From: Nitrospirota bacterium
GTDB taxonomy: Bacteria; Nitrospirota; UBA9217
DNA: 64,000 nt
Direction of reading: 5' to 3'
Assembly: GCA_963754875.1 (NCBI GenBank)
Contig: CAVWHO010000022.1
Coordinates: 128,001 to 192,000 of the forward strand
Below, piece after piece: positions 40,131 through 59,945 of the stretch. The stretch's first letter is position 1, and every line of letters starts with the position of its first letter. A model generated the notes under the pieces. It was not told the origin of the DNA. It made no database searches and saw nothing but the letters and a program-made list of their open reading frames with translations. The position numbers and the translations under genes were made by a program.

Positions 40131-41462
40131 ATGATCAATATTCTTGTTGTTGACGACGAAGAGCCGTTCAGACGGCTCCTGAACAAAGAGCTTTCCAGAA
40201 AAGGGTACGCTGTCGAGGTCGCGCACGACGGCAGCGAGGCGTTGCGCCTGTTGCACGACCGGTCATTCGATATCATCCTCCTCGATGTGGTCATGCCCGG
40301 TGTCGACGGCATCTCGCTCATGAAAAAAATGAAGGAGGATTCCGGGACGCCGGCGATCATCGTCCTCACCGGGAAGGCGACGGTGGAGACTGCGGTTGAA
40401 GCCATGAAAAACGGGGCCTACGATTATCTCACCAAACCTTACAAGCTCGATGAGCTGGCGATTGTCATAGACCGGGCCTACGAGTTCAGCCGTCTTTCCG
40501 TGAAGAGCAAGCTCCTGGAGCAGGAACTGGTCAGGAAGGAATCCCCTTTCGAATTCATCGGTAAAAGCAGGCAGCTCCAGGACATCCTCGCAATGATCCA
40601 GAAAGTCGCACCCACGGACTCGCCCGTCTTCATCCAGGGCGAGAGCGGTACGGGTAAGGAGCTCGTCGCAAACACGGTCTGGCACCACAGCACACGGAAG
40701 AGCGCGCCTTTCATCGCCCTGAACTGCGCGACACTCTCGGAGAACCTTATCGAATCAGAAATCTTCGGCCACGAAAAGGGCGCCTTCACCAGCGCCTACC
40801 AGGCAAAGCACGGCCTTGTGGAAGTGGCGGACAAGGGCACGCTGTTTCTCGACGAGATCGGCGAGATGCCGATCGGGCTCCAGGCAAAGCTGCTTCGCTT
40901 CCTCGATTCCGGCGAGTTTCGGAGAGTAGGCGGGAACAAGACGCTGCGAGTGGATGTACGCATGATCGCCGCGACCAACAAAGACCTCACGGGCCTGATC
41001 AAAGCGGGCCACTTCCGGGAAGACCTCTATTACCGGTTGAACGTTATCAACGTGACCATCCCGCCGCTCAGGGAGCGGAAGGAAGACATCGTCGAACTGG
41101 CGCGTCATTTTTTGGGAAAGTATGCGAAGAAGCTGTCCAAATCCATTGCGGAATTCACTGCAGAGGCCCTGGACCTGCTCACGGGATACAACTGGCCGGG
41201 CAACGTCCGGGAGCTCGAGAACGTCATCGAGCGGGCGGTGATCCTGTGCGAATCGGGCAGGATCGGCGCGGAAGACCTTTCCATCTCTTCGTATGCAGCG
41301 GTCGCGGACATGAGCGTGAATCCTTCTCTGGAAGAAATGGAAAAGAACTACATCCTCAGGGTGCTCAAAGAGGCGGGAAACAACCAGTCGAAAGCGAGCC
41401 AGCTCCTCGGCATCGACCGTAAGACCCTCTACCTTAAGCTGAAGAAATACGGTATCAGCTGA
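40131..41462 (+). CDS. sigma54-dependent NtrC-family response regulator
   Basis: REC, GESGTGKE, GAFTSA (GAFTGA-like), WPGNVREL, Fis-type HTH. Confidence 0.95.
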   Translation: MINILVVDDEEPFRRLLNKELSRKGYAVEVAHDGSEALRLLHDRSFDIILLDVVMPGVDGISLMKKMKEDSGTPAIIVLTGKATVETAVEAMKNGAYDYLTKPYKLDELAIVIDRAYEFSRLSVKSKLLEQELVRKESPFEFIGKSRQLQDILAMIQKVAPTDSPVFIQGESGTGKELVANTVWHHSTRKSAPFIALNCATLSENLIESEIFGHEKGAFTSAYQAKHGLVEVADKGTLFLDEIGEMPIGLQAKLLRFLDSGEFRRVGGNKTLRVDVRMIAATNKDLTGLIKAGHFREDLYYRLNVINVTIPPLRERKEDIVELARHFLGKYAKKLSKSIAEFTAEALDLLTGYNWPGNVRELENVIERAVILCESGRIGAEDLSISSYAAVADMSVNPSLEEMEKNYILRVLKEAGNNQSKASQLLGIDRKTLYLKLKKYGIS

Positions 41463-44770: not shown

Positions 44771-45640
44771 TTACTCCAGCGTCCGCCTTATTTCCTCTGC
44801 ATCAAGTCCCTGACCGATGATCACAATCCTGCTGTCCTGGATGTCCTTTTCAAAGGGAACGCTTTCCATTTTCCCGTACACGATATCGAATCGATAAGGC
44901 CCTTGCTCCGTCCGGACAAGGGCCTTTGCTCTCACCACGGTCCCGTATTTCCCTTGAGCCAGATCTCCCAGCCCTGTCGTAAGGACAGCCAGGTCATTGA
45001 TCCTCTGCGGCCTGATGGTCATTGTACCAAAATGAAGATGCCCATGGCCAACGCCCTTCCCCCGTGCACCAGCAGACACCTCCGGCAGGGGTTTCTGAAT
45101 CTCCGCGTTTACTGTGCGAAACAAAACAGCGTGCGGGTTCATGGATTCGATATGATTGATTGTTGCAACGATGGCCGCCTCAGGTGCCAGGTCCGTCTTG
45201 TTTACCAGAACCACATCTGCAAGAGAAACCTGGTCCTCGAAGAAGCTCCCGTACATGCCCGATTCGAGGAGCTCGACAAACTCCACGGCGTCGATGATGT
45301 TGACAACAGTTGCGGCCCTGATACCCGAACTTTCAAGCGCTTCGAGCACTCCCGAAGGTGACGCCACACCGCTCGGTTCGATCACGAGGTGCTCAGGTGC
45401 GAATTGACGGATGATCCTCTCGATCGTCGTGATGAGGTCAAACTTGAGTGTGCAGCATACGCAGCCGCTCGGGAGCTCCACAGATTCGATGCCGCTTGCG
45501 GTAAAGATTTCTCCGTCGATCCCGGCAGCACCGAAATCATTCACCAGAACCACGGTCTTTTCTGATCCATGCTTCACGAAACCCCTGATGAACGTTGTTT
45601 TTCCTGCACCCAAAAGCCCGCATACAACCGTTACTTTCAT
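44771..45640 (-). CDS. COG0523/CobW-family G3E metallochaperone GTPase
   Basis: GLLGAGKTT, GCVCC, EPSG, NKTD, short His patch. Confidence 0.9.
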   Translation of the reverse strand: MKVTVVCGLLGAGKTTFIRGFVKHGSEKTVVLVNDFGAAGIDGEIFTASGIESVELPSGCVCCTLKFDLITTIERIIRQFAPEHLVIEPSGVASPSGVLEALESSGIRAATVVNIIDAVEFVELLESGMYGSFFEDQVSLADVVLVNKTDLAPEAAIVATINHIESMNPHAVLFRTVNAEIQKPLPEVSAGARGKGVGHGHLHFGTMTIRPQRINDLAVLTTGLGDLAQGKYGTVVRAKALVRTEQGPYRFDIVYGKMESVPFEKDIQDSRIVIIGQGLDAEEIRRTLE

Positions 45641-46141: not shown

Positions 46142-46157
46142 TGGCACTGCAAATGCA
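46142..46157 (+). promoter_or_regulatory. sigma54 (-24/-12) promoter of the methyltransferase cluster
   Basis: TGGCACTGCAAATGCA = TGGCAC, GG-N10-GC. Confidence 0.75.
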
Positions 46158-46172: not shown

Positions 46173-46502
46173 ATGAAAAACATCCTTCTCTGCTCCTCCA
46201 ATCCCATCCTGGTCAAGAGCCTCTACAGTATGCTGAGAGACGAAGGGCATGACGTAGAAACCGTGGAACACCCGGCAGTGGCCGTCCATAAGGTGATGTT
46301 CGGCTTGTTTGATCTTGCCATCCTTGACTCAGAACCTTTTGGTCTTTCCACGGAGGATGCAGTGCAAATCATAAAGACCGTGGAGCCCAACCTGCCGATA
46401 GTATATGTCGGGGGCGGCATGAACGATGGCCCGTCCTTGGCCGTCGACGCGCCGGTTGACCTCGAAGAGCTCAAACGAACTATCCATAGTATCACGGTAT
46501 GA
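46173..46502 (+). CDS. Atypical receiver-domain protein
   Basis: REC fold pattern (FDLAILD, PNLPIV, PVDLEEL) but lacking the N-terminal acidic pair and the conserved Lys. Confidence 0.7.
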   Translation: MKNILLCSSNPILVKSLYSMLRDEGHDVETVEHPAVAVHKVMFGLFDLAILDSEPFGLSTEDAVQIIKTVEPNLPIVYVGGGMNDGPSLAVDAPVDLEELKRTIHSITV

Positions 46503-46572
46503 TCGAACGACGCAAGGCGTGAGACTCTGACGCTTCGTCGGCATGTCTATTCATTTTCGGAGGGGAGATGCT

Positions 46573-47601
46573 ATGAAACCAAAGGAAGTTATGCTTAAGA
46601 CATTCGAGGGGGGAAAGTCCGACAGACTCCCGGTGACCCTGTTCGGCGCGGGAATGTGGAGCATCAAAGGCTGGGGCACGTCGTTTGAGGCGCTTTCAAG
46701 GGACGCGGACAAGATGACTTCCATGCTCGTTGACATGAGCGCCAAGCTCCAGTGCGACATCGTGTATCCCGGGTCGGGGTACAATAACTTCCATGCCTCG
46801 GCACTCGGCGGCAAGATAAAATTTCGCGAAGTCGGCGCGCCGGACCTGGAGAACCATTTCGTGTCCACGGAAGAGGACCTTGCAAAACTCAACCTCGCGA
46901 ACCTCGATGCCGATGAGACCATCAATACCGTGAAAAAGGCGTTGCGCCAAACGAAGGCAAAGATCGGTGACACCTATGTGGTGACCATGACCGCCTGGGG
47001 GCCCTTCACCCTCGGCGCGAGGCTTGTGGGAGAAGAGACCATGATGAAGGCCACGTTCAAGAAACCAGCCTTTGTCGAGAAGGTCGTAGACTTCGCTACG
47101 AATCTCCTGATCCATCTCTACGAACCGATTGTCGCAGACAAAACGCTCGAGGTGATCAGCCTCGCGGACCCCACGGCATCGGGCGACCTCATTTCCAGAA
47201 AGCAATTCGAAAAGTTCGCCGTACCCTATCTGAAAAAATTTACCGATTGGGCAAAATCCAAAGGCGTGCATACGCTGGTCCACATCTGCGGAAATACGAC
47301 CGACCGGCTGGACCTGTTCCCGCTGACCGGGGCCTCCTGCATCAGCCTGGACCACAAGACGGACATGGCAAAGGCGAAGGAAACGCTCCACGGCAAGATG
47401 TGCTTCGGCGGGAACGTGGACCCCGTGAAGATCATGCTGAACGGCACGGTGCAGGACGTGGAGAATGCCTGCAAGGACGTGATCAAGACTGCGGGCACGG
47501 ACGGGGGATTCGTGCTCATGCCGGGCTGCGACATCCCGCCGACCGTTCCCTACGACAACATCAAGAAGTTCATCCAGGTGGCGCACGAGTGGAAAATGTA
47601 A
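46573..47601 (+). CDS. URO-D family MtaA/CmuA-type corrinoid methyltransferase 1
   Basis: GPFT, ADPTASGDLIS, Zn ligands HICG and PGCD, GNVDP. Confidence 0.88.
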   Translation: MKPKEVMLKTFEGGKSDRLPVTLFGAGMWSIKGWGTSFEALSRDADKMTSMLVDMSAKLQCDIVYPGSGYNNFHASALGGKIKFREVGAPDLENHFVSTEEDLAKLNLANLDADETINTVKKALRQTKAKIGDTYVVTMTAWGPFTLGARLVGEETMMKATFKKPAFVEKVVDFATNLLIHLYEPIVADKTLEVISLADPTASGDLISRKQFEKFAVPYLKKFTDWAKSKGVHTLVHICGNTTDRLDLFPLTGASCISLDHKTDMAKAKETLHGKMCFGGNVDPVKIMLNGTVQDVENACKDVIKTAGTDGGFVLMPGCDIPPTVPYDNIKKFIQVAHEWKM

Positions 47602-47711: not shown

Positions 47712-48230
47712 ATGGGTATTTTGGACGAGTTGAAGAAACTGTTTTCCGGAGCACAGAGTGCATCCGGGCATAAGGAGGAAGTAAAAATGGCTGACAAGAA
47801 AATGTCGTTGGAAGAAGTAAATGAGTACATGAAGAAGCAGTGCGGCTTCGTACCGCGCATGTTCCAGATCATCAACACCGTGACGCCGGAGCCGGGCAGG
47901 ACGTTCGCCGATTTTTATGCGAGCATCTTCGCTGACGGAGCCCTTTCCCGCAAGATAAAAGAGCTGATGTTCATGTCCGGCGGTGTGGCCTACTGCTCGC
48001 CGCGGTGCATCATCCACGTGATCCCGGCCATCAATGCCGGCGCGACCACGGGCGAGATCTTCGAAGCAGCTTCGGTCGGCATGATCCTCGGGGGCTTTGT
48101 GCCCGGCGGACCCGGCATCCCCTATGCCTTCGAGTATGCCCTCAAGTGCCTCGACATCGAAGCGAAGTTCCGCAAGGGCGAGAAGTGGGAGTACCTGCCT
48201 CAGCCCAAGTTCGATCATGGTGTATTTTAA
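47712..48230 (+). CDS. Carboxymuconolactone decarboxylase/AhpD-family protein
   Basis: DGALSRKIKELM, CSPRC..H, AINAGAT..EI.EA. Confidence 0.82.
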   Translation: MGILDELKKLFSGAQSASGHKEEVKMADKKMSLEEVNEYMKKQCGFVPRMFQIINTVTPEPGRTFADFYASIFADGALSRKIKELMFMSGGVAYCSPRCIIHVIPAINAGATTGEIFEAASVGMILGGFVPGGPGIPYAFEYALKCLDIEAKFRKGEKWEYLPQPKFDHGVF

Positions 48231-48345: not shown

Positions 48346-49299
48346 ATGGGGATGTTTCGATTTAAAAAAGACCAACAGGTATTTACTCTCGGCAACATGA
48401 AAGTGGGCGGCCAGCCCGGAGAAAATCCGCCGCTCCTGATCGCGTCTATGTTTCACAATAAGGACCGGATCGTCACGGACCGCAAAGGCAATTTCGACCG
48501 TAAGAAGGCCACGGAGATGATCAGGACCCAGGAAGCGCTGTCCGCCTCCACGGGGATTCCGGCCATGGTCGCCATGGTAGCGAACTCGGCGGAAGAGGCC
48601 AAGATCTATATCGATTTTTACCGCGAAACGACAACAATGCCCTTCGGCATCGACATGTGGGTCGCAGAAAAACGGGCTGAGGCAACGGAGTATGTGGCCA
48701 AGCTCGGACTCCAGGACAAGTTCCTGTACAACAGCATCACGCCCTGGGACAAGGACATCAAGGGACAGGTCCGGAAGCTGAAGGACCTCGGCATCAAGCA
48801 TGTCGTGGTGCAGGCCTTCGACGACCAGGACCAGTCGCCTGCGGGCCGTCTTAAGTCGCTCGAGAGCATCCTTTCCCAGGGGGCCGACGGCTTCGAGACC
48901 GTCATCGTTGACACATCGGTCATGAACCTGCCTGCAACGTCGTTCTCCCTCGTCGCGAACAGGTTGATCAAGGAGAAACTCGGCCTGCCCTGCGGCGGCG
49001 CCTACTCGAACGGCACCCACATGTGGAAAGAGGCGAAGACCATCTGGAGCCTCGACGGGTTCAAGGCCATGGATGCTGTGGTCCAGGGCATGGCCTCGGC
49101 CATCTGGAGCGATTTCAATTTTTATGGCCCCATCGTTACGGCGCCGCGGATCTTCCCTGCAGTGGCAGCAGCGCAAGTCCTGCTTTCCACGCTGGTGTAT
49201 GACGAAACGAAGAAAATATCGGACAACGCAAACATACCGATCAAGAAATACTTTTCGGATTTTATAGGAAAACTGACCTCGGGAGCAGCGAGGAAGTAG
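48346..49299 (+). CDS. MtrH-family pterin (THF/H4MPT):corrinoid methyltransferase
   Basis: N-terminus MFRFKKDQQVF...KVGGQPGENP, YNSI, C-terminal YGPI...FPAVA typical of MtrH homologues. Confidence 0.88.
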   Translation: MGMFRFKKDQQVFTLGNMKVGGQPGENPPLLIASMFHNKDRIVTDRKGNFDRKKATEMIRTQEALSASTGIPAMVAMVANSAEEAKIYIDFYRETTTMPFGIDMWVAEKRAEATEYVAKLGLQDKFLYNSITPWDKDIKGQVRKLKDLGIKHVVVQAFDDQDQSPAGRLKSLESILSQGADGFETVIVDTSVMNLPATSFSLVANRLIKEKLGLPCGGAYSNGTHMWKEAKTIWSLDGFKAMDAVVQGMASAIWSDFNFYGPIVTAPRIFPAVAAAQVLLSTLVYDETKKISDNANIPIKKYFSDFIGKLTSGAARK

Positions 49300-49435
49300 A
49301 AAAAGTACAATTTTGACGAACTACGGGGCCGCTTCGCGTCCCTACGGTTATACCATCATTCGTACCACGAATTACCGTGTTTATCTGTGTGTCTCGACAA
49401 AGTCGAGACCCCTGGTTATATTTTAAGGAGGATGA

Positions 49436-50464
49436 ATGACAACATTGAATGCAAGAGAGCGAGTGCTGAAGCTTTTTGCCGGAGAGGAAGTGGACAGGCC
49501 GCCCTGCTTCAGCGGTATGGGCAACGTAACCACGGAGGGGTTGAAATCACTCGGGCAAAAATTTGCCGCAACACACCTCGACGCAAGGATGATGGCCGCT
49601 GCTGCGGTCTCAACATACAAACTGTTCGGCTTCGAGTCCGCGGTCGCGCCTTTTGACCTCTGCATCGAGGCCGAGGCCATGGGGTGCGAGATCAACGTCT
49701 ACGCCCACTCCGAAGACCTCCTGTACCCCACGATCAAAACGAAGCTGATCCACAACGAAGCAGAGATGGACATCGCCCTTCCGTCCGATCTCACGACCCG
49801 CGGCAGGGTGCCGCTTATGGTCGAAGCAATCAAGCTGATGAAGAAGGACGTCGGCAGCGAAACTGCCATCGGCTCCTACGTGCTCGGGCCCTTCACGCTC
49901 GCCGGCCAGGTCATGGAGCTGAACGACCTGCTGAAGCTTTCCTTCAAGAAGCCGGACAAGGTGAGCAAGCTCCTCGACCAGTTGACCGACGTGATCATCC
50001 AGGTCGCAGGACAGTACGAAAAGGCCGGCGTGGACTTCATCACGGTGAGGGAAATGGGAGCAACGTCGGACGTACTCTCCCCGCGCGTGTTCAAGACCCT
50101 CATCCTGCCTTATCTCAAGAAGATCTTCGAGAAGATCACTGTCCCCAGCGTCATCCATATCTGCGGCAAGACGAACGACATCGTCCCCTTTATGGCGGAG
50201 AGCGGGGCGAAGGCCATCAGCGTGGACCAGAAGAACGACGTAGCCGAAACGCGCAAAAAGCTCGGCCCCAAGGCGCTCGTCTTCGGGAACTATGATCCCT
50301 ACAATGTGCTGGTCTCGGGCACGCCGGACCTCATACGCCAGACGATCAAGAAATGCATGGACGACGGCGTCAGCGCGGTCTGGCCGGGGTGCGATATCTG
50401 GCCCACCGTGCCTGCCGAAAATTTCAAGACGATGATGGATGAAGTCAGAAAGTACAGGAGGTAA
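49436..50464 (+). CDS. URO-D family MtaA/CmuA-type corrinoid methyltransferase 2
   Basis: PFDLCIEAEAMGC, GPFTLAG, HICG, PGCD. Confidence 0.88.
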   Translation: MTTLNARERVLKLFAGEEVDRPPCFSGMGNVTTEGLKSLGQKFAATHLDARMMAAAAVSTYKLFGFESAVAPFDLCIEAEAMGCEINVYAHSEDLLYPTIKTKLIHNEAEMDIALPSDLTTRGRVPLMVEAIKLMKKDVGSETAIGSYVLGPFTLAGQVMELNDLLKLSFKKPDKVSKLLDQLTDVIIQVAGQYEKAGVDFITVREMGATSDVLSPRVFKTLILPYLKKIFEKITVPSVIHICGKTNDIVPFMAESGAKAISVDQKNDVAETRKKLGPKALVFGNYDPYNVLVSGTPDLIRQTIKKCMDDGVSAVWPGCDIWPTVPAENFKTMMDEVRKYRR

Positions 50465-50467
50465 TCC

Positions 50468-51160
50468 ATGGCAACGGAAGAGAAGAAAAAAGAGTTGTTG
50501 GAAAAACTGCGGAACGCCGTGATCCAGTACGACGAGGACACGGCAAAAGAGGCTGCCAACGAAGCGCTCGCCGTCGGCTTGGAAGCGAACGACGCCATCT
50601 TCAACGGCCTCGTCTCCGGCATGGTGGAAGTGGGCCGCATGTTCGAGGCCCAGGAGTACTTCGTGCCCGAGCTCTTGATGTGCGCCGACGCGCTCTATGC
50701 GGGCCTGGACATCCTGAAGCCGCATGTGACGCAGCTGGACCTCGGGGTCAAAGGCTCGGTGGTGATCGGGACCGTGGAAGGCGACGTGCACGACATAGGC
50801 AAGAACATCGTGAAGATGATGTTCGACGTTGCCGGCTTTACGGTCTATGACCTGGGCCGCGACGTGCCGCTGGACAAGTTCGTGCAGGAGCAGCTCAGGA
50901 CCGATTCCGACCTGGTCTGCCTTTCGGCCATGATGACCACGACCATGACGGGCATGAAGAAAGTGATCGACGACCTTCGGACCAAGAACCCCAATGTCAA
51001 GATCATGATCGGCGGCGCGCCCGTGTCCCAGGACGTTGCCGAAAAGTACGGGGCCGACGGCTATGCCAAGGACGCTACCAACGCCCTGAAGGACGCCATC
51101 AATATGGTCGCTTCGCTCAAGAAGATGAAAGATGAGGTAGAAGCAAAGAAGGCGAAATGA
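50468..51160 (+). CDS. Methyltransferase cognate corrinoid protein (MtaC/MtbC type)
   Basis: B12 cap domain (EYFVPELL), GTVEGDVHDIGKN, SAMMTTT, GGAP. Confidence 0.95.
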   Translation: MATEEKKKELLEKLRNAVIQYDEDTAKEAANEALAVGLEANDAIFNGLVSGMVEVGRMFEAQEYFVPELLMCADALYAGLDILKPHVTQLDLGVKGSVVIGTVEGDVHDIGKNIVKMMFDVAGFTVYDLGRDVPLDKFVQEQLRTDSDLVCLSAMMTTTMTGMKKVIDDLRTKNPNVKIMIGGAPVSQDVAEKYGADGYAKDATNALKDAINMVASLKKMKDEVEAKKAK

Positions 51161-51816
51161 AGACCGTGCTCAGACACGAGCTGCTGGGGCTGGGCGCCAG
51201 GGTCGTCGGGGTCGCCGGGCTCCGGGGGCATATGAGCGGCGAGCTCGCGCACCTGGACGTTGCCGTGTCTATCGGCCTGGACCGGCGGCTGAACGAGGAC
51301 ACGTTGAGCCACCTCATGAAGCTTCAGAAGCGCGCGGTCCGGTTTCTGAAGACCCGGGGCCATCGCACGCTGGCCATCCCGCCGGACTCGGACCGGATCA
51401 AAGGCACCTTCATTTCGAAGCTCTACTCGCTCTTTAATCACAAAATGGCGGCGACTACCGCGGGGTTGGGATGGATCGGAAAAAACGGACTCCTGATCAG
51501 CCCGGACTACGGCCCCCGGCTTTCTCTGGTCACCGTGCTGACCGACGCGCCGCTCGAACCGGACCGGCCCATGGAACACAGCTTGTGTGGCGATTGTACG
51601 CTCTGCGTGCAGTACTGCCCGTCGCAGGCGATCACCGGAGCGGAGTGGTCGCGCTCCTCGCCCTTTGTGGAACTGGTCCGGCTCGATGCCTGCAGGAGCC
51701 ACAAGGAGACCAAACGGTTGACGGAAGGAAAGCCCAATTGCGGGCTGTGCATCAACATCTGCCCCTATGGAAGACAAGAGACGAATGCGGAGTGCGGAAT
51801 GGAGGGTGCGGAATAA
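51157..51816 (+). CDS. QueG/reductive-dehalogenase-like 2x[4Fe-4S] protein
   Basis: HKMAA..AGLGWIGKNGLLI...GPRL, CGDCTLCVQYCP, CGLCINICP. Confidence 0.8.
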   Translation: MKTVLRHELLGLGARVVGVAGLRGHMSGELAHLDVAVSIGLDRRLNEDTLSHLMKLQKRAVRFLKTRGHRTLAIPPDSDRIKGTFISKLYSLFNHKMAATTAGLGWIGKNGLLISPDYGPRLSLVTVLTDAPLEPDRPMEHSLCGDCTLCVQYCPSQAITGAEWSRSSPFVELVRLDACRSHKETKRLTEGKPNCGLCINICPYGRQETNAECGMEGAE

Positions 51817-51904
51817 CAACCGTCCTTCCCGCAGAGTGCCTCTTGTTTCACCGTGTTCATCCGTGGTTACAATGTTTTGATTCATCTTTATCAGGAGGAA
51901 GTGA

Positions 51905-53887
51905 ATGATTAAGAAACACAAAGTTATATTCCAGCCCTCGGGCAGGCGCGGCGAGATCGAGGACGGTAAGACCATCCTCGAGGCGGCCCAGGCCATGGGC
52001 GTCGACATCGAAGGGCTTTGCGGCAACAAGAAGGTCTGCGGCAAGTGCAAGGTGCGGGTCGAAGAAGGCTACTTCGAGAAGGACAACATCGACTCGGGCA
52101 TGGCCCACCTCTCGCCGATCACCGAAGCGGAGAAAAAGCACATCAAACCCGAGGACGGGCCCGGCATCCGTCTGTCCTGCACGGCAGAGGTCCACGGCGA
52201 CATCAAGGTATTCGTACCCGAGCGGTCGCGTGCGGGCAAGCAGGTGGTGCGCAAGGCCGCCAAAGAGCTCACGATCAAGCTCGACCCGGCCGTGAAAAAA
52301 TATAATGTCGCGCTCGAAAAGCCCTCTTTGCATGATATGACGACCGGAGACTGGGAGCGTGTGCTCAAGTCCCTGGAAGACAACTACGGACTGAAGGGGC
52401 TCACCTTCGATTATCTGGTCCTGAAGGACCTCCAGGACATCCTGCGGAAGGGCGAATGGAATGCGACCGCCACGGTCTGGATGGACAAAGAGATCATCAA
52501 GATGGAGCCGGGGTTCGTTGAACTGAGCTATGGTCTTGCCGTGGACGTCGGGACCACGACCTGCGTAGGCTATCTGACGGACTTGAACACGGGCGCGGTG
52601 GTGAACACCGAGTCCATGATGAATCCCCAGGTGCCCTACGGCGAGGACGTGATGTCGCGCATCACCTACGCTATGAGCAATCCCGGCGTGGGTCTCGATA
52701 CCATGCAGAAGGCGATCATCCAGGGCCTGAACGAGATCATCGAGCGAGTGGTGAGCGAGATCCGGAAGGACGGACCGAACCCGGGCCATGTCATCGACGA
52801 TCTGACGATCGTGTTCAACACGGCCATGCACCACATCTTCCTGGGCCTGAACCCCGAGTATATCGGCCGTTCACCCTTCATTCCCGCGGTGCAGAGCTCG
52901 CTCGATATCAAGGCGCGCGACCTGGGGCTTCGGATCAACCCCGCTTCCTACATCCACGTGCTGCCCATCGAAGCGGGCTTCGTGGGCGCCGACAACGTGG
53001 GCGTGCTGATCGCCGAGGAACCGTACAACCAGGACGAGATGGTCCTGATCATCGACATCGGAACGAACGGCGAACTGCTCATGGGCAACCGGAACAAGGT
53101 CTGCTCCACGTCCTGCGCTACCGGACCTGCCTTCGAAGGCGCCCAGATCAAGTTCGGCATGCGCGCCGCTCCCGGCGCCATCGAGACGGTGGAGATCGAT
53201 CCGGCGACGAAGGAACCGCGGTACAAGGTCATCGGTAAGGCGGACTGGCATACTCATATCGAAAAGGTGAACGCAAAGGGCCTGTGCGGATCAGGCATCA
53301 TCGGCGTTGTCGCCGAGATGTTCAAGGCGGGCGTCATCGACAAGAGCGGAAGGTTCGTCATGGACCTGGGCACCAACCGGGTGCGCAAGGATGCTGACGG
53401 CAAGCCCGAGTATGTCCTTGCCTGGGCGTCGGAGACCTCCATCGGCCAGGACATCACCATCACCCAAGGAGACGTGCGGGCGCTCCAGCTCGCCAAGGGG
53501 GCGCTCTACGCAGGCGCAAAACTGATGATGAAGAGGCTCGGCATTACCAAGCTCGACCGCGTGATCCTGGCAGGCGCTTTCGGAAGCCACATCGACAAGG
53601 TGGCCTCGCTCACGCTCGGCATGTTCCCGGACTGCCCCATCGACATGGTCTACGCCGTGGGCAATGCTGCCGGTGACGGCTCCCGCATGGCCCTTTTGAA
53701 CAGGGACAAGCGTCGCGAAGCGAACGAACGCGCGCGATGGGTGGAGTTCGTCGAGATCGCGACAGACCCGGCGTTTGAAAAAGAATTCATGCAGGCGATG
53801 CATATCCCGCACATGAAGGACAAGTTCCCGAACCTGAAAGCGCTGCTCGAAAAGTCGTCGAAGAGCTTGGTTGAGATAAAGGCATAA
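51905..53887 (+). CDS. ATP-dependent corrinoid reductive activator (RACo/RamA type, ASKHA/DUF4445)
   Basis: N-terminal [2Fe-2S] (CGNKKVCGKC), DVGTTT, DIGTNGE, ATGPAFEG, LAGAFG, GNAAG. Confidence 0.92.
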   Translation: MIKKHKVIFQPSGRRGEIEDGKTILEAAQAMGVDIEGLCGNKKVCGKCKVRVEEGYFEKDNIDSGMAHLSPITEAEKKHIKPEDGPGIRLSCTAEVHGDIKVFVPERSRAGKQVVRKAAKELTIKLDPAVKKYNVALEKPSLHDMTTGDWERVLKSLEDNYGLKGLTFDYLVLKDLQDILRKGEWNATATVWMDKEIIKMEPGFVELSYGLAVDVGTTTCVGYLTDLNTGAVVNTESMMNPQVPYGEDVMSRITYAMSNPGVGLDTMQKAIIQGLNEIIERVVSEIRKDGPNPGHVIDDLTIVFNTAMHHIFLGLNPEYIGRSPFIPAVQSSLDIKARDLGLRINPASYIHVLPIEAGFVGADNVGVLIAEEPYNQDEMVLIIDIGTNGELLMGNRNKVCSTSCATGPAFEGAQIKFGMRAAPGAIETVEIDPATKEPRYKVIGKADWHTHIEKVNAKGLCGSGIIGVVAEMFKAGVIDKSGRFVMDLGTNRVRKDADGKPEYVLAWASETSIGQDITITQGDVRALQLAKGALYAGAKLMMKRLGITKLDRVILAGAFGSHIDKVASLTLGMFPDCPIDMVYAVGNAAGDGSRMALLNRDKRREANERARWVEFVEIATDPAFEKEFMQAMHIPHMKDKFPNLKALLEKSSKSLVEIKA

Positions 53888-54069
53888 AAGAGTACAACAT
53901 CCACCACAGAGACACTCCCTGTGACCTCTGTGGTGCATTGCTATGGTTTGGAATTATCACCGAAGATCTCTCCTTGGTGATAATGGGTTGCAGGGGCAGG
54001 AAGGCTAAGACTTTCCCCGGGCCTTCCTGCCTCTTCTTCCTTGCTCAATGCCAAGAAGGAAAAACGGTT

Positions 54070-54387
54070 ATGACAAAGCTCATCATACACTCAGGGGCAT
54101 GCGGGTATACGGTCACGGTCAAAGCGGAAAAAGGCCAGGGCGGCAAAATAACCATCTCTCTGGAAACCGAATGCGAAATGGTAAAAAAAATGCTCGCTGA
54201 CATCGCTGTCCTTGACCGGTTCGCACCGCTCGCCGGTTTCCTGAGCAATCCGGTGTACCTGTCCGCGGCAAAGCACCTGAAGCACGGGGCCTGTCTTGTG
54301 CCTTCCGGTATCCTGAAGGCTATCGAAGTCGAGGCGGGCCTGAACGTTCCGAAGGACGCGGTGATCGAATTCGGAAAAGAGAGGTAA
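54070..54387 (+). CDS. Small conserved Cys-containing hypothetical protein
   Basis: GACG, TEC, H..C.VPSGILKAIEVEAGL; Shine-Dalgarno AAGGA. Confidence 0.7.
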   Translation: MTKLIIHSGACGYTVTVKAEKGQGGKITISLETECEMVKKMLADIAVLDRFAPLAGFLSNPVYLSAAKHLKHGACLVPSGILKAIEVEAGLNVPKDAVIEFGKER

Positions 54388-54525
54388 GCGAAAAATCCTG
54401 GCTCCTTCGGCTGGTTGTGGATATTGCCGTTCTCCTGGTTATCGCACGCAGGCAGTGGGGATGTTTGCGTATCGGTTATCTCCCCGATATGGTACAATAG
54501 GAAAAAAGCCAGACAACCGGAACGC

Positions 54526-55212
54526 ATGGGAAAACTATTGATACTGACTGCGTATGCAGTGTACGCGGCATTCTGGATACGCCTTTGTGCGCACATACTC
54601 GTTTGGTGGCGGGCCGTACGGCAGAGCACCGGGCCTGCATCCTCTGTCGCTCCCGTGCGCGGGAAGGCATGTGCGCTTGCGGCAGGGGACGTGCTTTTTT
54701 TTGGAAGGCTCTTCATGGTGAATCCCGCACTCTGGCTCGGTGAGTGGGTCTTCCATGCAAGCTTTCTCCTCGTGCTCGCGCGTCATCTTCGTTTTTTTCT
54801 GAACCCGGTCCCTGCGTGGGTATGGTTTCTTCAGACGCCGGGCTTGCTCGCCGGATACATTCTTCCCCTCTCGCTCCTTTACATCCTGGTCATCCGGCTT
54901 CTCACCAAGCAGGAAAAGTATGCATCTCCGGCGAACATGCTTCTTCTCGGCCTGGTCCTCGGCATCAGCACGATCGGTGTGCTTATGCACGCGTTGTTCA
55001 AACCGGATCTCGTCGACGTGAAGCTGTTCATCTTCGGCATCATGAGCTTCTCACCGGCTGTTGTTCCCGGGAGCGTGCTGTTCCTGGTGCACTTCAGCCT
55101 GGTCCTCGTCCTCGTCTCCCTTCTCCCGTCGCACATTTTCACGGCGCCGATCATCATGCTGGAAGCGAGGAAGCGGGAGCAGGCGCTTCACCTGGTGATG
55201 CATGAAAAATAA
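54526..55212 (+). CDS. NarI/HdrE/DsrM-like membrane cytochrome b subunit
   Basis: About five TM helices; His pairs (WVFH...ARHLRFF; LVHF...PSHIF); overlaps the downstream Fe-S gene. Confidence 0.75.
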   Translation: MGKLLILTAYAVYAAFWIRLCAHILVWWRAVRQSTGPASSVAPVRGKACALAAGDVLFFGRLFMVNPALWLGEWVFHASFLLVLARHLRFFLNPVPAWVWFLQTPGLLAGYILPLSLLYILVIRLLTKQEKYASPANMLLLGLVLGISTIGVLMHALFKPDLVDVKLFIFGIMSFSPAVVPGSVLFLVHFSLVLVLVSLLPSHIFTAPIIMLEARKREQALHLVMHEK

Positions 55213-56404
55213 ACGCTCATTCGTCGAAGAACTCTCGCCGCGGCAGATCCTCGAAATCGACGCCTGCACCCAGTGCGGCGAATGCCTCAAACACTGCCCG
55301 GTGCAGGACGTGACCGGCAACCCGACCGTCTCGCCGCCGGAGAAGATCCGTATGTTCCGCGAGTTCATCCGTGCGACCGACGGCCTCAAAGCAAAGCTCT
55401 TCGGCCCCGGCGAGGCAGACCGGAAGATGCTGGAAGACTTCGCCAAGGCGGTCTATGAATGCACGACGTGCGGAGCCTGCGGTCAGAGCTGCACGGTCGG
55501 GATCTTTACCCAACGGCTCTGGCCTGCACTCAGAAAAGAGATGGTGAAGCGCGGCCTGGGGCCCATCGGCGTCCAGGCGAACCTACCGAAGGCGATCATG
55601 AATTCGGGAAATCCCTATGACAAGCCTTCCGCTGACCGTTACAAACCCTGGTTTCCCGAGAACGTAAAGATCGCCGAACGCGCGGACATTGCCTATTACG
55701 CCGGATGTACCGGCGCGTACGAAGCACAGCCCATGGTCAAAGGCGACGTACTCGTCCTCAATGCCATCGGGGAGCCTTTTACCATGCTGTCGCCGGAAGA
55801 CGAGGTGTGCTGCGGTTTTCCGCTCTTCATTACGGGCCAGCACGACGAGCTCAAGGACCTCGTGACACGACTCGTAAACGGATATAAAGCAAAAGGGGTC
55901 AAGGTGCTCGTCTGCTCCTGTCCCTGCTGTGTGAATATCATGTCCCGGGACTGGCCCCTGTTCTATGGCGAAGCGCTTCCGTTCAAAATCCGGCACATCA
56001 CGCAATACGTCTCGGACGCCGTGCAAAAAGGAAAGTTGCGCCTGAACAAGGAGCTGCACGAGTCCGTGATCTATCACGACCCGTGCTATCTTTCCCGTGG
56101 TGTGGGCGTGATTGAGGAGCCGCGCGCAGTGCTCAGGAGCATCCCTGGCATCACGGTCCTCGAGTTCGAGCGGCACGGCTTGAACTCCCGGTGCTGCGGT
56201 TCCGGCGGTGCAGCGAGAAAAGTATTTCATGAAAACGCCATCGCCATGGGCAGGCAGACAATCGACGAGGCTGTGGCGAAAAAAGCGGACCGCTTGATTC
56301 TGAGCTGTCCCGCGTGCTATGCTAAAGTAAACGAAGCAATGAAGGGCCACACGAACCAGATACGGATCACGGACATCATGGAGCTGGTCAGCGGGTTGAT
56401 TTAA
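55202..56404 (+). CDS. HdrD-like heterodisulfide reductase catalytic subunit
   Basis: Two CxxCxxCxxxC motifs plus two CCG domains (GC...CCG...CPCC; HDPC...CCG...CPAC). Confidence 0.85.
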   Translation: MKNKRSFVEELSPRQILEIDACTQCGECLKHCPVQDVTGNPTVSPPEKIRMFREFIRATDGLKAKLFGPGEADRKMLEDFAKAVYECTTCGACGQSCTVGIFTQRLWPALRKEMVKRGLGPIGVQANLPKAIMNSGNPYDKPSADRYKPWFPENVKIAERADIAYYAGCTGAYEAQPMVKGDVLVLNAIGEPFTMLSPEDEVCCGFPLFITGQHDELKDLVTRLVNGYKAKGVKVLVCSCPCCVNIMSRDWPLFYGEALPFKIRHITQYVSDAVQKGKLRLNKELHESVIYHDPCYLSRGVGVIEEPRAVLRSIPGITVLEFERHGLNSRCCGSGGAARKVFHENAIAMGRQTIDEAVAKKADRLILSCPACYAKVNEAMKGHTNQIRITDIMELVSGLI

Positions 56405-56572
56405 GATCGTAACCACTGGAGCTGCGCTCACACGGGGCTTCGCCGCACGGGAAAGCAAATCGGACTTAAGGTTCTTTTATCTTAAAGACTAAGTTTTTTC
56501 TGTGTGCGCGGCAAAACCGCACCCGTGTTCATCTGTGGTTACTAAATCGTTTTGGACGTTAGGTGAGAAATT

Positions 56573-57829
56573 ATGAGCCATTTTTCCATTCAATGCAGGA
56601 ACTGCGGAAAGGTCCTCGAGAACGCGTACTGCGCTTACTGCGAACACTGCAAGGATTCGCTCCTGGTCACGCGCTACAGCGATACCCGGTTTGCTGAAAG
56701 TACGGCAGAGGGCGTCTGGAGATTTAACTGGCTTCCGGTCCACGAGCCGAAGATCTCCCAGCCCGGGCCTGTGGTCTACCGGTCAGAAGGTCTGGCGCGC
56801 GAGGTCGGGCTCGAAAACCTGCATATCGCCTTCAACGGATACTGGCCGGAGAAGGGCGCGTTCCTCGAAACCTGCACGTTTAAGGAGTTCGAGGCCGCGA
56901 TCGTACTCCAGAATGCCCGCGAGAGCGGCATGGAAGGCCTTATCGTTGCGTCGGCAGGGAACACGGCCCGTGCCTTTTCGCACCTCTCCGCAGTCACCGG
57001 CTTCCCGGTCGTGATCGTGGTGCCGCGCATGTGCCTTACCGAAATGTGGTATCTCGAAGACTCTTCTATCGTGCCCACGCTTGCCGTGGGTGACGGCGAC
57101 TATGCGGACTCCATCGACGTTGCCAAGAAGGTCGCCATGGCCGTGGGGTTCCCCTTCGAAGGCGGCGTGAAAAACATCGCAAAGCGCGACGGCCTCGGCA
57201 TCGTCATGCTCGAAGCGGTTTCCAAAATAGGAAAACTTCCTGACCATTACGTACAGGCCGTGGGCAGCGGTACCGGCGCTGTCGGAGGCTGGGAGATGGC
57301 CGAGCGGTTCGTCAAAGACGGACGGTACGGCTCTAAGCTCCCGGTCCTGCACCTCGGACAGAACCTGCCCTTCGCTCCCATGGTCCATGCCTGGGAAAAA
57401 GGCAGCAGGACACTCTTTCCAGAGGACCTGAATCCGGAGCTCATCTCTCGTATAACGACGAAAGTTCTCTCCACTCGCTACCCTGCGTATTCTGTCAAGG
57501 GAGGCGTGTTCGATGCGCTGACCGCGACCAAAGGATCCATGTACGGTATCGAAAACGACGAAGTCTACGCAGCTATGGATGCATTCCACAAAGCAGAGGG
57601 AATAGATATCGTTCCTGCTTCGGGCGTGGCCGTTGCCACACTGAAGGCGGCAGTAAACAAAGGCTCAATCAAGAGCAACGATACGGTCCTGCTGAACATT
57701 ACCGGCGGCGGTGAAACGCGGTTGCGGAAGGACAAAAAAACTTACTTCGTCGTGCCCAAGTTCATTTCCAAGAAGGTGACGGAGAAAGAGATCGAGGAGC
57801 TGCTGTGCCACGTCCTGAAGAAGAGCTGA
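56573..57829 (+). CDS. Cysteate synthase (PLP-dependent, threonine synthase-like)
   Basis: N-terminal CxxC/CxxC, FNGYWPEKGA..TCTFKEFEA, SAGNTARAF, EGGVKNIAKRDGLG, QAVGSGTG, QNLPF.PM, LNITGGG. Confidence 0.88.
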   Translation: MSHFSIQCRNCGKVLENAYCAYCEHCKDSLLVTRYSDTRFAESTAEGVWRFNWLPVHEPKISQPGPVVYRSEGLAREVGLENLHIAFNGYWPEKGAFLETCTFKEFEAAIVLQNARESGMEGLIVASAGNTARAFSHLSAVTGFPVVIVVPRMCLTEMWYLEDSSIVPTLAVGDGDYADSIDVAKKVAMAVGFPFEGGVKNIAKRDGLGIVMLEAVSKIGKLPDHYVQAVGSGTGAVGGWEMAERFVKDGRYGSKLPVLHLGQNLPFAPMVHAWEKGSRTLFPEDLNPELISRITTKVLSTRYPAYSVKGGVFDALTATKGSMYGIENDEVYAAMDAFHKAEGIDIVPASGVAVATLKAAVNKGSIKSNDTVLLNITGGGETRLRKDKKTYFVVPKFISKKVTEKEIEELLCHVLKKS

Positions 57830-58929
57830 TAGCCATACTCAAAAAGCACGGCGTGGACTTCACTGCCACGCTGCCCTGCGAGAAGTTCAAGACTCTTCTC
57901 GAGATGGTCGCTCATGACTTCACCCACGTACCCCTTACGCGGGAAGAGGAAGGCGTCGGCATATGCGCCGGCGCAGCGCTCGCCGGCAAACGGCCGGCAA
58001 TGTTCGTCCAGAGCTCGGGCATCGGAAACATGATCAACGCCCTGCTTTCGCTCACGCAGTTCTACGAACTTCCGCTCGCATTGTTCGTCAGCCGCAGAGG
58101 AATTTACCAGGAAAAAATCGAGGCCCAGTTCCCGATGGGACAGCGCCTTCCGGGGATACTTTCAGGCGCTGGAATTTCCTATTCAGAAATAAACAGCAGC
58201 CAAGATTTCGCTACCGTAGGCAACGAACTGGGGGAAGTTTTTAAGACCAATAAGATTCATGCGTTCCTCCTGAGCCCGGCAGTGTGGGTTGGGTCAGAAT
58301 GCAAAGGAACGAGAACACAGTGTAAAGTGCAGGAAAGAGCTGCGGAAGGAACAATGCGTAAGACCGGTATGCCGGAGTTCACGCGCTACGATGTCATCAG
58401 GATCATCGCACCGTACCTCGAAGGCAAGGCCGTTGTGAGCAATCTCGGCTGGCCGTCAAAAGAGCTCTATGCGCTCAAGCACCTACCTTCAAACTTCTAC
58501 ATGCTTGGGAGCATGGGCATGGCCACGCCTGTCGGACTCGGCATTGCACTGACGTCGCCAAAGGACATTGTCGTGATCGACGGCGACGGCAGCCTGCTCA
58601 TGAATCCCGGCACTCTTGCCACAGCGGCCTATGCCAATCCGAAGAATCTGACGATTATCGCGATCGACAACGGCGCCTACGGGTCAACGGGAAACCAGCC
58701 TACTTTCGCGGCCTCCTGCGTTGATCTGGAACAGGTGGCTGGGGGATTTGGGTTTAGGCACACGTTGAAGGTGTCAACGGAAAAGGAATTAACAGAGGTA
58801 ATGAAGCAGCAGCGGCAGGGTCCCGCCTTTATTCACGTTCTCGCCATTCCGGGAAACAAAGACGTGCCGAACATTCCGGTCCCTCACCTTGAGATTAAAA
58901 AGCAGGTGCAGAAGTTTTTGAAAAGGTAG
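57805..58929 (+). CDS. comDE: Sulfopyruvate decarboxylase, fused ComD-ComE
   Basis: LPCE, TREEEGVGICAGA, QSSGIGNMINAL, NFYMLGSMG, TPP motif DGDGS...DNG.YGSTGNQ; adjacent to cysteate synthase. Confidence 0.88.
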   Translation: MPRPEEELIAILKKHGVDFTATLPCEKFKTLLEMVAHDFTHVPLTREEEGVGICAGAALAGKRPAMFVQSSGIGNMINALLSLTQFYELPLALFVSRRGIYQEKIEAQFPMGQRLPGILSGAGISYSEINSSQDFATVGNELGEVFKTNKIHAFLLSPAVWVGSECKGTRTQCKVQERAAEGTMRKTGMPEFTRYDVIRIIAPYLEGKAVVSNLGWPSKELYALKHLPSNFYMLGSMGMATPVGLGIALTSPKDIVVIDGDGSLLMNPGTLATAAYANPKNLTIIAIDNGAYGSTGNQPTFAASCVDLEQVAGGFGFRHTLKVSTEKELTEVMKQQRQGPAFIHVLAIPGNKDVPNIPVPHLEIKKQVQKFLKR

Positions 58930-59060
58930 CGTGGTTCCGCCCGACTATGCTAAGGGAGTAAAAACAAAATATTGAGAAGAAAAAAAATACCTATATACGC
59001 ATTTTGGGGTGTTAGACCGCCAGCAAATGTTATTCCATGCACCATCGCGAGGAGGAGTAT

Positions 59061-59663
59061 TTACAACTTCCCGGTCTTCTGATATTCCTGAACATAAAGC
59101 TTGATCGCCCTCAAGATCATCCAGTCCACCGTAACACTATTGTCCTTTGCTATCTGGACCATTGCGTCGATAAGGTCCTTATCGATCGTGGGCATGCCGG
59201 ACGCCTGCGATTGTGGTTGAGCAGCCTCTTCGCTCATACCGAGCTCTGCTCCGGGAGTCCGCTTGAGATATTCCCGCCGAAGAATTTTCTTGAGGCCCTT
59301 GACATCTCCGCTCTCGATTGCCTTTCGCACATCCTCAGGCACTTCCGGCGACATCTGCTCCGCAGCCTTTTGCTCGGAGGACACAGTCTGCTGCTGCTCC
59401 TCCTGTGCAGGAGACGGCGGGGTTGTTTGGCCCCCCATGGGCATCATCCCCGTCATCCCCATCATCATGGATGCCAGGTTCTTCGCATATTCATTGTCCG
59501 GCATTTCCCGCTTCAGAAACTCATCAAGCTTTCCTTCTGCCATGGCCGCGGCCATGCTGTCTGCCGTCAGTCCGCCCTGATCCTCAGATTGTTCCGAAGA
59601 CCTCTTTCTCCCGAATGGCGTGTTCGGCGGCGTTGGAAGCGGTTTTTCTTTTTTCATGGTCAT
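59061..59663 (-). CDS. Hypothetical protein, low-complexity with a possible C-terminal ribbon-helix-helix-like segment
   Basis: 200-aa ORF with Shine-Dalgarno AGGA; C-terminus IDKDLIDAMVQIAKDNSVTVDWMILRAIKLYV. Confidence 0.65.
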   Translation of the reverse strand: MTMKKEKPLPTPPNTPFGRKRSSEQSEDQGGLTADSMAAAMAEGKLDEFLKREMPDNEYAKNLASMMMGMTGMMPMGGQTTPPSPAQEEQQQTVSSEQKAAEQMSPEVPEDVRKAIESGDVKGLKKILRREYLKRTPGAELGMSEEAAQPQSQASGMPTIDKDLIDAMVQIAKDNSVTVDWMILRAIKLYVQEYQKTGKL

Positions 59664-59945
59664 TCCTGCTTTCTGTGGGCTGTTTTAAATTTATACGCAT
59701 ACTCGTAGGAAATCGGTGCTGCCACGCGCGCCTCCTCTTTCACCTTCCCGGGAATACAATATCTCACGGTCTTGACGTTGTCAAGACCTGTCGTAGCGAA
59801 CATTCGTACAGCATCGGAGCCGCCGCATACCCCTTTTTTACCATACCCCTTTTTTACCATTGAAGTTACAAAAGAGAAGGGGTACATTATGGGACGCTTT
59901 TTCATTCCTGCACGACACAGGACACCCAGTACAAAGGAGAACAGA

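Follow-up and report, generated by a model that had tools for sequence, protein, structure and literature searches.

Coenzyme M (CoM, 2-mercaptoethanesulfonate) is regarded as a hallmark of the metabolism of methane and alkanes in archaea, and also takes part in alkene oxidation in a few aerobic bacteria. To our knowledge, a single route to CoM has so far been described in a bacterium, that of Xanthobacter autotrophicus Py2. This route starts from phosphoenolpyruvate (PEP) and proceeds via ComA together with XcbB1-E1 (Wu et al. 2022, PMC9457059). The type 2 pathway of Methanosarcinales, which depends on phosphoserine, is encoded by cs (MA3297), comDE (MA3298) and MMP16/comF (MA3299) (Chadwick et al. 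2025, PMC12068725; Graham et al. 2009, cited there). Here we report the analysis of a 64,000-nucleotide stretch of DNA, called the window below (contig CAVWHO010000022.1 of assembly GCA_963754875.1, positions 128,001 to 192,000), from a Nitrospirota metagenome-assembled genome (MAG) of 4.3 Mb, 90% complete. It carries, at positions 56573-58929, a gene for cysteate synthase followed by a gene for a fused sulfopyruvate decarboxylase, ComDE. Our best explanation, to which we give a probability of about 0.6, is that this pair, together with a housekeeping aminotransferase, makes sulfoacetaldehyde, which is likely finished to CoM or to a very close thiol.

The two open reading frames (ORFs), 56573-57829 (418 amino acids, ATG start) and 57805-58929 (374 amino acids, GTG start), both on the forward strand, share 25 nt. 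In 50 out of 50 bacterial loci whose two proteins align end to end with those of the window, the same 25-nt overlap was inferred again, so that neither chance nor a wrongly called start can account for it. The first protein scored 484.7 bits with TIGR03844, the equivalog model of cysteate synthase (cut-off 324.9; the NCBIfam annotation and a whole-genome search agree), against 92.8 bits with the best threonine synthase model (cut-off 303), and every ThrC model remained far under its cut-off. Among solved structures, 9k3c, deposited as a cysteate synthase, matched residues 4-398 with 304 bits (E 1e-89), whereas solved threonine synthases gave at most 50 bits. No publication on the 9k3c structure was found in the literature. 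The alignment with 9k3c includes the stretches TFKEFEA/SFKETEA, whose lysine is presumably the one that binds pyridoxal phosphate (PLP), and ASAGNTARAF. A separate ThrC candidate is present elsewhere in the host genome. By these matches 56573-57829 is a genuine cysteate synthase and not ThrC, and its predicted reaction is the formation of L-cysteate from O-phospho-L-serine and sulfite.

The second ORF contains both halves of a thiamine pyrophosphate (TPP) dependent decarboxylase. Pfam placed TPP_enzyme_N at residues 7-104 and TPP_enzyme_C at 232-345, and NCBIfam a ComD-type half at residues 5-161 and a ComE-type half at 194-370. The ComD-type (alpha) half reached 184.2 bits with TIGR03845 (cut-off 147.95) and the ComE-type (beta) half 221.8 bits with TIGR03846 (cut-off 221.5). 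On the same protein, the phosphonopyruvate decarboxylase model TIGR03297 gave 221.3 bits, for a cut-off of 312.5. Single ORFs of 371-379 amino acids also follow cysteate synthase in the archaeal loci L081, L083, L086, L088 and L090. Judged from its sequence, 57805-58929 is a genuine fused sulfopyruvate decarboxylase, predicted to convert sulfopyruvate into sulfoacetaldehyde and CO2.

Compared with the Methanosarcinales type 2 pathway, the window has an orthologous cysteate synthase, an adjacent single-chain ComDE, and likewise no aminotransferase gene in the cluster. In a Methanosarcinales locus retrieved for comparison, the gene order was MMP16-cs-comDE. The differences lie in the context. 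The host of the window is a bacterium with a dissimilatory sulfite reductase, devoid of methyl-CoM reductase (Mcr) and of MMP16/COG1900; its pair forms the tail of a methyltransferase and heterodisulfide reductase (Hdr)-like cluster under a sigma54-type promoter; and a cytoplasmic protein with the SsuA fold travels with the window-type pair instead of MMP16. As to the Xanthobacter route, ComA is lacking, with zero PF02679 matches in the host genome, and the host is an anaerobic sulfite reducer, whereas Xanthobacter is an aerobic alkene oxidiser. An earlier sequence-only reading had described the 25-bp overlap of cysteate synthase with a single-chain ComDE, regarded the pair as Methanosarcinales-type, and set its route apart from that of the alkene oxidisers. 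All of this holds: the coordinates are exact and both TPP halves lie in one ORF, both genes are orthologues with the ThrC and phosphonopyruvate decarboxylase models below their cut-offs, and the genome has no ComA. It had further proposed transfer from, or shared ancestry with, methanogens, of which the second part is clear, whereas transfer is not demonstrable because the backbone and root of the tree are open.

The closest cysteate synthases were those of Nitrospirota/Thermodesulfovibrionales MAGs, with 62-94% identity, and archaeal copies were 46-48% identical. A tree of 76 rows was built with the window, 74 of the 80 loci (those with a match over at least 85% of the query) and the host ThrC as outgroup. 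It recovered the methanogens (99) and the Hydrothermarchaeota (96) as clades, and distributed the Nitrospirota over several clades with an open backbone; its archaeal sample was the tail of a bacteria-biased match list, and the outgroup branch was very long, leaving the root unusable. From these comparisons it is clear that the pair shares ancestry with archaeal genes; donor and direction of transfer cannot be told. The cysteate synthase of L030, a contig labelled Rokuibacteriota, nested within a Nitrospirota clade.

The host genome provides for the first step, as a profile search detected DsrA with 556 bits, marking a source of sulfite. The host is thus read as a sulfite-reducing Nitrospirota, in which sulfite from dissimilatory sulfur metabolism would be available. 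The next step, from cysteate to sulfopyruvate, is carried out in M. acetivorans by a non-specific amino-acid aminotransferase (PMC12068725), so that no dedicated gene is expected in a cluster. Indeed, neither an aminotransferase nor a ComF-like gene was found in the cluster by Pfam and NCBIfam annotation, no search of the genome for aminotransferases having been made. The sequence-only reading was right that the cluster holds no aminotransferase, and wrong in labelling the step as missing. It had also noted that the gene for the final thiolation is absent from the cluster, which extends to the whole genome: with all 42 candidates scored, the MMP16/ComF model TIGR03287 gave only matches to its ferredoxin part, of at most 29 bits, and the COG1900/HcyBio domain PF01837 was not found in the 90%-complete assembly. 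The substitutes that it put forward for this last step, namely the QueG-like protein, the CMD protein or the small Cys protein (DUF6951), are disfavoured, for all three persist in clusters of the Nitrospirota family f3 that lack cysteate synthase and ComDE, and do not co-vary with the CoM pathway.

Methanoperedens and Methanocellaceae depend on authentic CoM for Mcr. In table S1 of Chadwick et al. 2025 (PMC12068725), all 22 rows of Methanoperedenaceae have mmp16=0 and cog1900=0, the same rows having cysteate synthase=1 in 22 of 22 and comDE>=1 in 20 of 22; for Methanocellaceae, mmp16=0 in 4 rows out of 6, including M. paludicola and M. conradii. The absence of ComF is therefore no argument against CoM, since Methanoperedenaceae, which require it, also lack MMP16 and COG1900.

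The cysteate synthase and ComDE genes are genes 12 and 13 of a run of 13 genes on the same strand (46176-58929, Table 1), of which they form the 3' end. The same order was found in most of about 68 Nitrospirota loci, with the HdrD-like gene directly 5' of cysteate synthase in most of them. Three Hydrothermarchaeota loci have most of the cluster genes around their own cysteate synthase-ComDE pair, and methanogen loci have the pair only, without the rest of the cluster. The 13 genes are predicted to be co-transcribed behind the sigma54-type promoter. Among the sequencing runs listed as matching 49436-58929 there was no RNA run, and the DNA runs had a small share of it.

Two proteins of the cluster belong to the URO-D family of MtaA, and both keep the HxC...C motifs. 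That encoded at 49436-50464 aligned with M. mazei MtaA (4ay7) with 172 bits, the HxC/HICG and PGC motifs, which we take to be the zinc ligands of MtaA, being in register; the equivalog model MtaA_Meth was not reached (257 bits, cut-off 400). As in the MtaA/MtbA/MtsA systems of Methanosarcina, with their corrinoid protein and RamA, the MtaA-type enzyme of the window, which passes the subfamily cut-off and has the Zn motifs, is accompanied by a corrinoid protein and a reductive activase. Unlike in Methanosarcina, the activase is of the bacterial RACo type, a soluble MtrH-like protein is encoded in the cluster, and the host has no Mcr to consume methyl-CoM or make heterodisulfide. The last two genes before the pair may correspond to HdrED: a predicted membrane partner, with a weak resemblance to DsrM, precedes an HdrD-like subunit with two intact CCG domains. 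The latter protein shows both CX..CCG..CXXC motifs; its best NCBIfam match was TfrB (181 bits, under cut-off), and no Hdr, TfrB or DsrK model reached its cut-off. The membrane protein is conserved in 53 loci. The CMD/AhpD-like protein is 72-96% identical across loci and gave weak matches to AhpD domains fused to As/Se methyltransferases.

The nearest published work on bacteria is that on the type 1 mlp clusters, which likewise combine MtaA-like proteins, a corrinoid protein and a reductive activase, and are proposed to act on methyl-sulfur/methyl-selenium compounds (Kountz and Balskus 2023, PMC10418091). Their definition excludes a tetrahydrofolate methyltransferase within 20 kb, and most of them come from Firmicutes. 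In the part of that paper available to us, comDE, sulfonate and Nitrospir- do not occur, and the two mentions of heterodisulfide fall outside the description of the clusters (PMC10418091). The cluster of the window, unlike type 1 mlp clusters, includes MtrH, the Hdr-like pair, cysteate synthase and ComDE.

Among the C2 sulfonates that can be derived from sulfoacetaldehyde, CoM is the sole thiol. Zn-thiolate methyltransferases and CCG-type disulfide reductases use thiol or disulfide substrates, not amines or alcohols. As only CoM suits both kinds of enzyme, a thiol product is expected. In the mechanism that we propose, phosphoserine and sulfite would give cysteate by the action of cysteate synthase, cysteate would be turned into sulfopyruvate by the housekeeping aminotransferase, and ComDE would decarboxylate sulfopyruvate to sulfoacetaldehyde. 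Sulfoacetaldehyde would then be reductively thiolated to CoM by an enzyme that has no relation to ComF. The two Zn-type MtaA-like methyltransferases would use CoM as their thiol substrate and, in concert with the corrinoid protein, RACo and the MtrH-like protein, would exchange methyl groups between the thiol and tetrahydrofolate. Finally, through the DsrM/HdrD-like pair, a disulfide that contains CoM would be coupled to the quinone pool of the membrane.

The association of the pair with the methyltransferase module was surveyed in 401 sampled species genomes of Nitrospirota. Cysteate synthase was present in 70 of them (67 over cut-off), belonging to 35 of 162 genera, and an MtaA orthologue in 75; both were present in 68 genomes. 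The two genomes with cysteate synthase and no MtaA orthologue are 65-68% complete. Of the seven MtaA-only genomes, one has its match at a contig start (74%-complete assembly), one has a frameshifted cluster, two have contigs that end inside the cluster, and three truly lack the pair. The latter belong to one genus of family f3 (L091, L094 and L095); cysteate synthase and ComD are absent from them genome-wide, and they keep the kinase, the regulator, both URO-D proteins, CMD, MtrH, the corrinoid protein, the QueG-like protein, RACo and DUF6951. Their clusters have no DsrM-like gene and are flanked by a divergent HdrD paralogue (43% identity). In L091, the methyltransferase module is followed by radical S-adenosylmethionine (SAM), B12-radical-SAM and SAM-methyltransferase genes. 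The three genomes also encode a COG1900-like protein, with about 134 bits to positions 1-274 of TIGR03287.

By distribution, the best candidate for the last step is a protein encoded on the minus strand at 36949-37893, which is predicted to adopt the fold of TauA and SsuA, periplasmic proteins that bind taurine and alkanesulfonates. Its AlphaFold2 model had a mean predicted confidence (pLDDT) of 93.8; the best matching folds were TauA and SsuA, then the enzyme Thi5, which has the periplasmic binding protein fold (TauA 6ssy, SsuA 3ksx and 2x26, Thi5 4h6d: template modelling scores 0.74-0.85, identity 16-18%). Likeness to TauA, SsuA and Thi5 is in the fold. Unlike TauA and SsuA, the protein has no signal peptide (0 of 17 aligned bacterial and archaeal members of the family have one), no permease or ATPase gene was found beside its gene in the loci read, the SsuA family model TIGR01728 was not reached (92 bits, cut-off 163.5), and the family has an invariant set of His and Cys residues of its own. 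It thus shares only the fold with SsuA/TauA transporter binding proteins. In the 17 members, H7, H13, H79, H121, H216, H300, H305, C74 and C257 were invariant, and the motifs GHLST, GGHxEGT, GSIHD and WPxNPSYG were recognised. No Lys was invariant among them, which argues against a Thi5-like PLP site. A look-up in the ESM Atlas returned generic NMT1_2 clusters only, from Nitrospirota and archaea.

Of the 70 Nitrospirota genomes with cysteate synthase, 64 also encoded this SsuA-like protein, in a search that drew 381 genomes, so that five of the six non-matching genomes may lie outside the draw. Six genomes had the SsuA-like protein and no cysteate synthase match, four of these being ambiguous MtaA-only assemblies, and in family f3 it was present in 0 of 12 genomes. 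The 38 Hydrothermarchaeota genomes had it in 14/14 cases with cysteate synthase and 0/24 without, plus one weak paralogue; MMP16 over cut-off was found in none of the 38. In the phylum containing the methanogens (131 genomes), the figures were 27/63 with cysteate synthase and 1/68 without. In L081, a Methanosarcinales MAG, MMP16, cysteate synthase and ComDE are followed by a true SsuA-family protein (L081:12612-15179; 191 bits, over cut-off), then by two further ORFs that may encode parts of a transporter. The CoM genes of L081 may therefore have a sulfonate importer next to them, perhaps the evolutionary source of the cytoplasmic SsuA-like protein. Two other arrangements, each seen once, were set aside as leads to the last step. 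ThiF and JAB genes with a 92-amino-acid ORF, sulfur-carrier-like, follow ComDE in a single locus (L030:11154-12700). In L099, from a Methanocellaceae MAG, the SsuA-like gene is directly preceded on its strand by a gene for a NifS-type cysteine desulfurase (569 bits; L099:6422-8883), which is compatible with a sulfur-transfer role.

Several observations weigh against the CoM reading; they are gathered in this paragraph and the next, together with the explanations that they would favour. For ComDE, the ComE-type half exceeds its cut-off by 0.3 bits, TIGR03297 has a raw score equal to that of the ComE model, and the nearest TPP relatives of solved structure carry the name of putative phosphonopyruvate decarboxylase subunits, as if the genes were mis-assigned and encoded a threonine synthase paralogue and the phosphonopyruvate decarboxylase of a phosphonate pathway. 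We consider this very improbable. TIGR03297 is 91 bits under its cut-off and both Com models are over theirs; cysteate synthase is 160 bits over its own, with the structure matches and the separate ThrC candidate mentioned above; and the phosphonate reading of ComDE is made unlikely by the lack of a true PEP mutase in the 90%-complete host genome, the best TIGR02320 match being 121.3 bits for a cut-off of 319.55. Other objections concern the product. McrA was not found by profile search in the host genome, which leaves CoM without a known terminal enzyme to consume it, and a ComF-like match at E <= 1e-15 was found in 0 of the 70 Nitrospirota genomes with cysteate synthase (4 candidates scored per genome). 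MtaA-like proteins of other bacteria are, besides, believed to act on thiols or selenols of other kinds (Kountz and Balskus preprint, PMC10418091). The three f3 genomes indicate that the methyltransferase module can exist without this supply route, and in L030 the pair has no methyltransferase genes within 8 kb upstream. With the thiolation enzyme missing, sulfoacetaldehyde could instead flow to taurine, isethionate or sulfoacetate, serving as a solute or lipid head group, and the link with the methyltransferase and Hdr-like genes would be regulatory or accidental. This appears quite unlikely, given that 68 of the 70 cysteate synthase genomes also have the MtaA orthologue, that in most loci the pair immediately follows the HdrD-like gene in the same orientation, that the same partnership recurs in Hydrothermarchaeota, that the methyltransferase and CCG families are generally known for thiol/disulfide chemistry, and that Xsc was not found in the host genome. 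The product might also be a related but distinct thiol or sulfonate cofactor, such as a derivatised or extended mercaptosulfonate, used by the methyltransferases and the Hdr-like pair. A host without ComF/COG1900 and without Mcr would fit this idea, as would a dedicated cytoplasmic protein of sulfonate-binding fold and the CMD-like, DUF6951 and QueG-like proteins, which could modify the product. We nevertheless judge it unlikely: the SsuA-like family and the pair also occur together in the Mcr-dependent Methanoperedens and Methanocellaceae, so that the simplest shared product is CoM, and the MtaA-like protein of the window is over the cut-off of the methylcobalamin:CoM methyltransferase subfamily.

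The question of how the last step is done divides the evidence on the SsuA-like protein. We propose, tentatively and with the odds against it, that this protein is the core of a COG1900-independent CoM synthase that replaces MMP16 in Nitrospirota, Hydrothermarchaeota, Methanoperedens and Methanocella. Among archaea with cysteate synthase it was largely complementary to MMP16, which exceeded its cut-off in 2 of the 12 genomes that have the SsuA-like protein and in 8 of the 8 that lack it (Fisher two-sided p = 7e-4, a value that makes the pattern look too strong, the genomes being related and 14 of them having been taken non-randomly, as the first seven listed for each class). These counts are small; the named MAGs of Methanocellaceae and Methanoperedens from which L083 and L086 derive are among the 12, and two genomes have both proteins. 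Alternatively, the last step would proceed via sulfide with an unrelated reductase, or be partly non-enzymatic, and the SsuA-like protein would be a sulfonate sensor for the PAS/GAF kinase and the sigma54 regulator. This is a serious possibility, if short of an even chance. In the window the SsuA-like and kinase genes diverge, and in 25 of the 35 metagenome loci with sufficient upstream sequence they stand head to head, a pairing as compatible with a sensor as with an enzyme; the best matching folds of the SsuA-like protein are those of ligand-binding proteins. The sigma54-type pattern TGGCAY-N5-WTGCW was found about 360-400 nt 5' of the first methyltransferase gene in 10/10 loci with sufficient upstream sequence, the window and nine others. 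ComDE is convergent with the SsuA-like gene within 2.5 kb in only 9 of 33 metagenome loci, and the methanogen SsuA-like genes have as neighbours no CoM genes, but NifS and CobW/HypB (1 locus), MoaA/MoaB (2), DUF362-Fer4 and CGGC. Moreover, an M. acetivorans MMP16 deletion still makes CoM if sulfide is supplied, which its authors credit to a COG1900 enzyme (PMC12068725). On the other side, family f3 keeps the kinase and regulator and has neither the SsuA-like protein nor cysteate synthase and ComDE; in Hydrothermarchaeota the SsuA-like gene lies just after ComDE, colinear with it, in 12 of 14 genomes, and nothing matching the kinase or regulator of the window was seen in the three loci read; and seven His plus two Cys invariant would exceed the needs of a plain binder. 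A cytoplasmic sulfonate sensor or chaperone is a live alternative to an enzyme role for the SsuA-like protein.

Table 1. Features of the window discussed in the text, in order of position. Scores are in bits.
Feature	Position	Strand	Evidence
Cytoplasmic TauA/SsuA-fold (NMT1_2) protein	36949..37893	-	PF13379 75.6; no signal peptide
PAS/GAF sensor histidine kinase, cytoplasmic	38032..40056	+	NCBIfam histidine kinase; N-terminus without membrane segment
Sigma54-dependent NtrC-family response regulator	40131..41462	+	NCBIfam AtoC/NtrC-type matches
CobW/G3E-family metallochaperone GTPase, divergent from cluster	44771..45640	-	Pfam cobW 131, plus CobW_C
Sigma54-type promoter-like site TGGCAC-N5-ATGCA	46142..46157	+	pattern TGGCAY-N5-WTGCW
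Small receiver-domain-like ORF, predicted first cluster gene	46176..46502	+	weak Response_reg match, 22; just 3' of the sigma54-type promoter
Second MtaA/URO-D thiol methyltransferase	46543..47601	+	PF01208 200.5; TIGR01463 177, under cut-off; HxC and PGC motifs
CMD/AhpD-like protein, CxxxC motif	47712..48230	+	PF02627 26.2, cut-off 23
Soluble MtrH-family methylcorrinoid:pterin methyltransferase	48346..49299	+	PF02007 175; NF002142 329.2, cut-off 287
MtaA-type methylcobamide:thiol (CoM) methyltransferase	49436..50464	+	NF004889 280.9, cut-off 244; TIGR01463 256.9, cut-off 235.4
Corrinoid (B12-binding) methyl carrier	50468..51160	+	Pfam B12-binding, B12-binding_2; TIGR02370 204.9
QueG/reductive-dehalogenase-like 2x[4Fe-4S] protein	51157..51816	+	TIGR00276 66, TIGR02486 65, both under cut-offs
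RACo-type reductive activator of corrinoid proteins	51905..53887	+	Pfam RACo_C_ter, Raco_middle, RACo_linker, Fer2
DUF6951 small Cys-containing protein	53938..54387	+	PF22263 97.1; true start probably Met at ~54070
DsrM/HdrE-like membrane protein, predicted cytochrome b anchor	54415..55212	+	weak DsrM match 68.9, cut-off 300; hydrophobic
HdrD/DsrK/TfrB-like Fe-S protein, predicted disulfide reductase subunit	55202..56404	+	Pfam CCG twice, Fer4 dicluster
Cysteate synthase, PLP-dependent, ThrC-derived	56573..57829	+	TIGR03844; structure match 9k3c
Fused sulfopyruvate decarboxylase ComDE, TPP-dependent	57805..58929	+	TIGR03845 and TIGR03846
Conserved acidic low-complexity protein, ~200 amino acids, convergent with ComDE	59061..59663	-	helical C-terminal part

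The surroundings of the cluster were compared across loci. The pattern TGGCAY-N5-WTGCW has two matches in the whole window, both strands included. The kinase and sigma54 regulator genes (38032-41462) accompany the cluster in the window, in family f3 and on many metagenome contigs; the regulator gene lies directly 5' of the cluster in family f3 and adjoins ComDE in L047. The CobW gene also adjoins the cluster in L026, L092 and L096, and in the metagenome loci L108, L114, L117 and L118. A GTPase of the CobW/HypB type is encoded just after the SsuA-like gene in L099, from Methanocellaceae. This recurrence of CobW-type GTPases is perhaps a sign that one of the cluster enzymes has a metal centre. 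On the other flank, the acidic protein convergent with ComDE has orthologues at the equivalent place in 35 other Nitrospirota loci and zero significant Pfam matches. The plus-strand ORF 59037-59708, considered as a further cluster member, was discarded as the shadow of this conserved minus-strand gene. A terminator-like hairpin with a 10-bp stem and a T-run, noticed at 47616-47642 (+), separates the first URO-D gene from the CMD-like gene and could be an internal attenuator of the cluster. The window also encodes mnmE, mnmG, rsmG, parA, parB and sigma54 regulators, according to NCBIfam; the ORF 25325-26392 (+), between rsmG and parA, had zero NCBIfam matches.

Our literature searches turned up no account of Nitrospirota with cysteate synthase and ComDE, none of this cluster, and none that gives an SsuA/NMT1-like protein a part in making CoM. 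What is new here is the set of co-occurrence counts of the SsuA-like protein in three phyla, its complementarity with MMP16, and the link to published CoM users that lack MMP16. These results bear on a published open problem, the completion of CoM in pair-bearing organisms without MMP16/COG1900, and offer one testable candidate gene.

If the CoM reading is true, about one sixth of the sampled Nitrospirota species, anaerobic bacteria of the sulfur cycle, would make CoM; metagenome runs suggest peat, soil and sediment as the habitat of those that bear the cluster. CoM genes would then no longer be safe markers of methanogens in metagenomes, and a methyl-thiol metabolism so far undescribed would be tied to the sulfur cycle. 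If, in addition, the SsuA-like protein is the synthase, widespread Nitrospirota of soils and sediments would run a CoM-dependent module of methyl transfer and disulfide respiration without methyl-CoM reductase.

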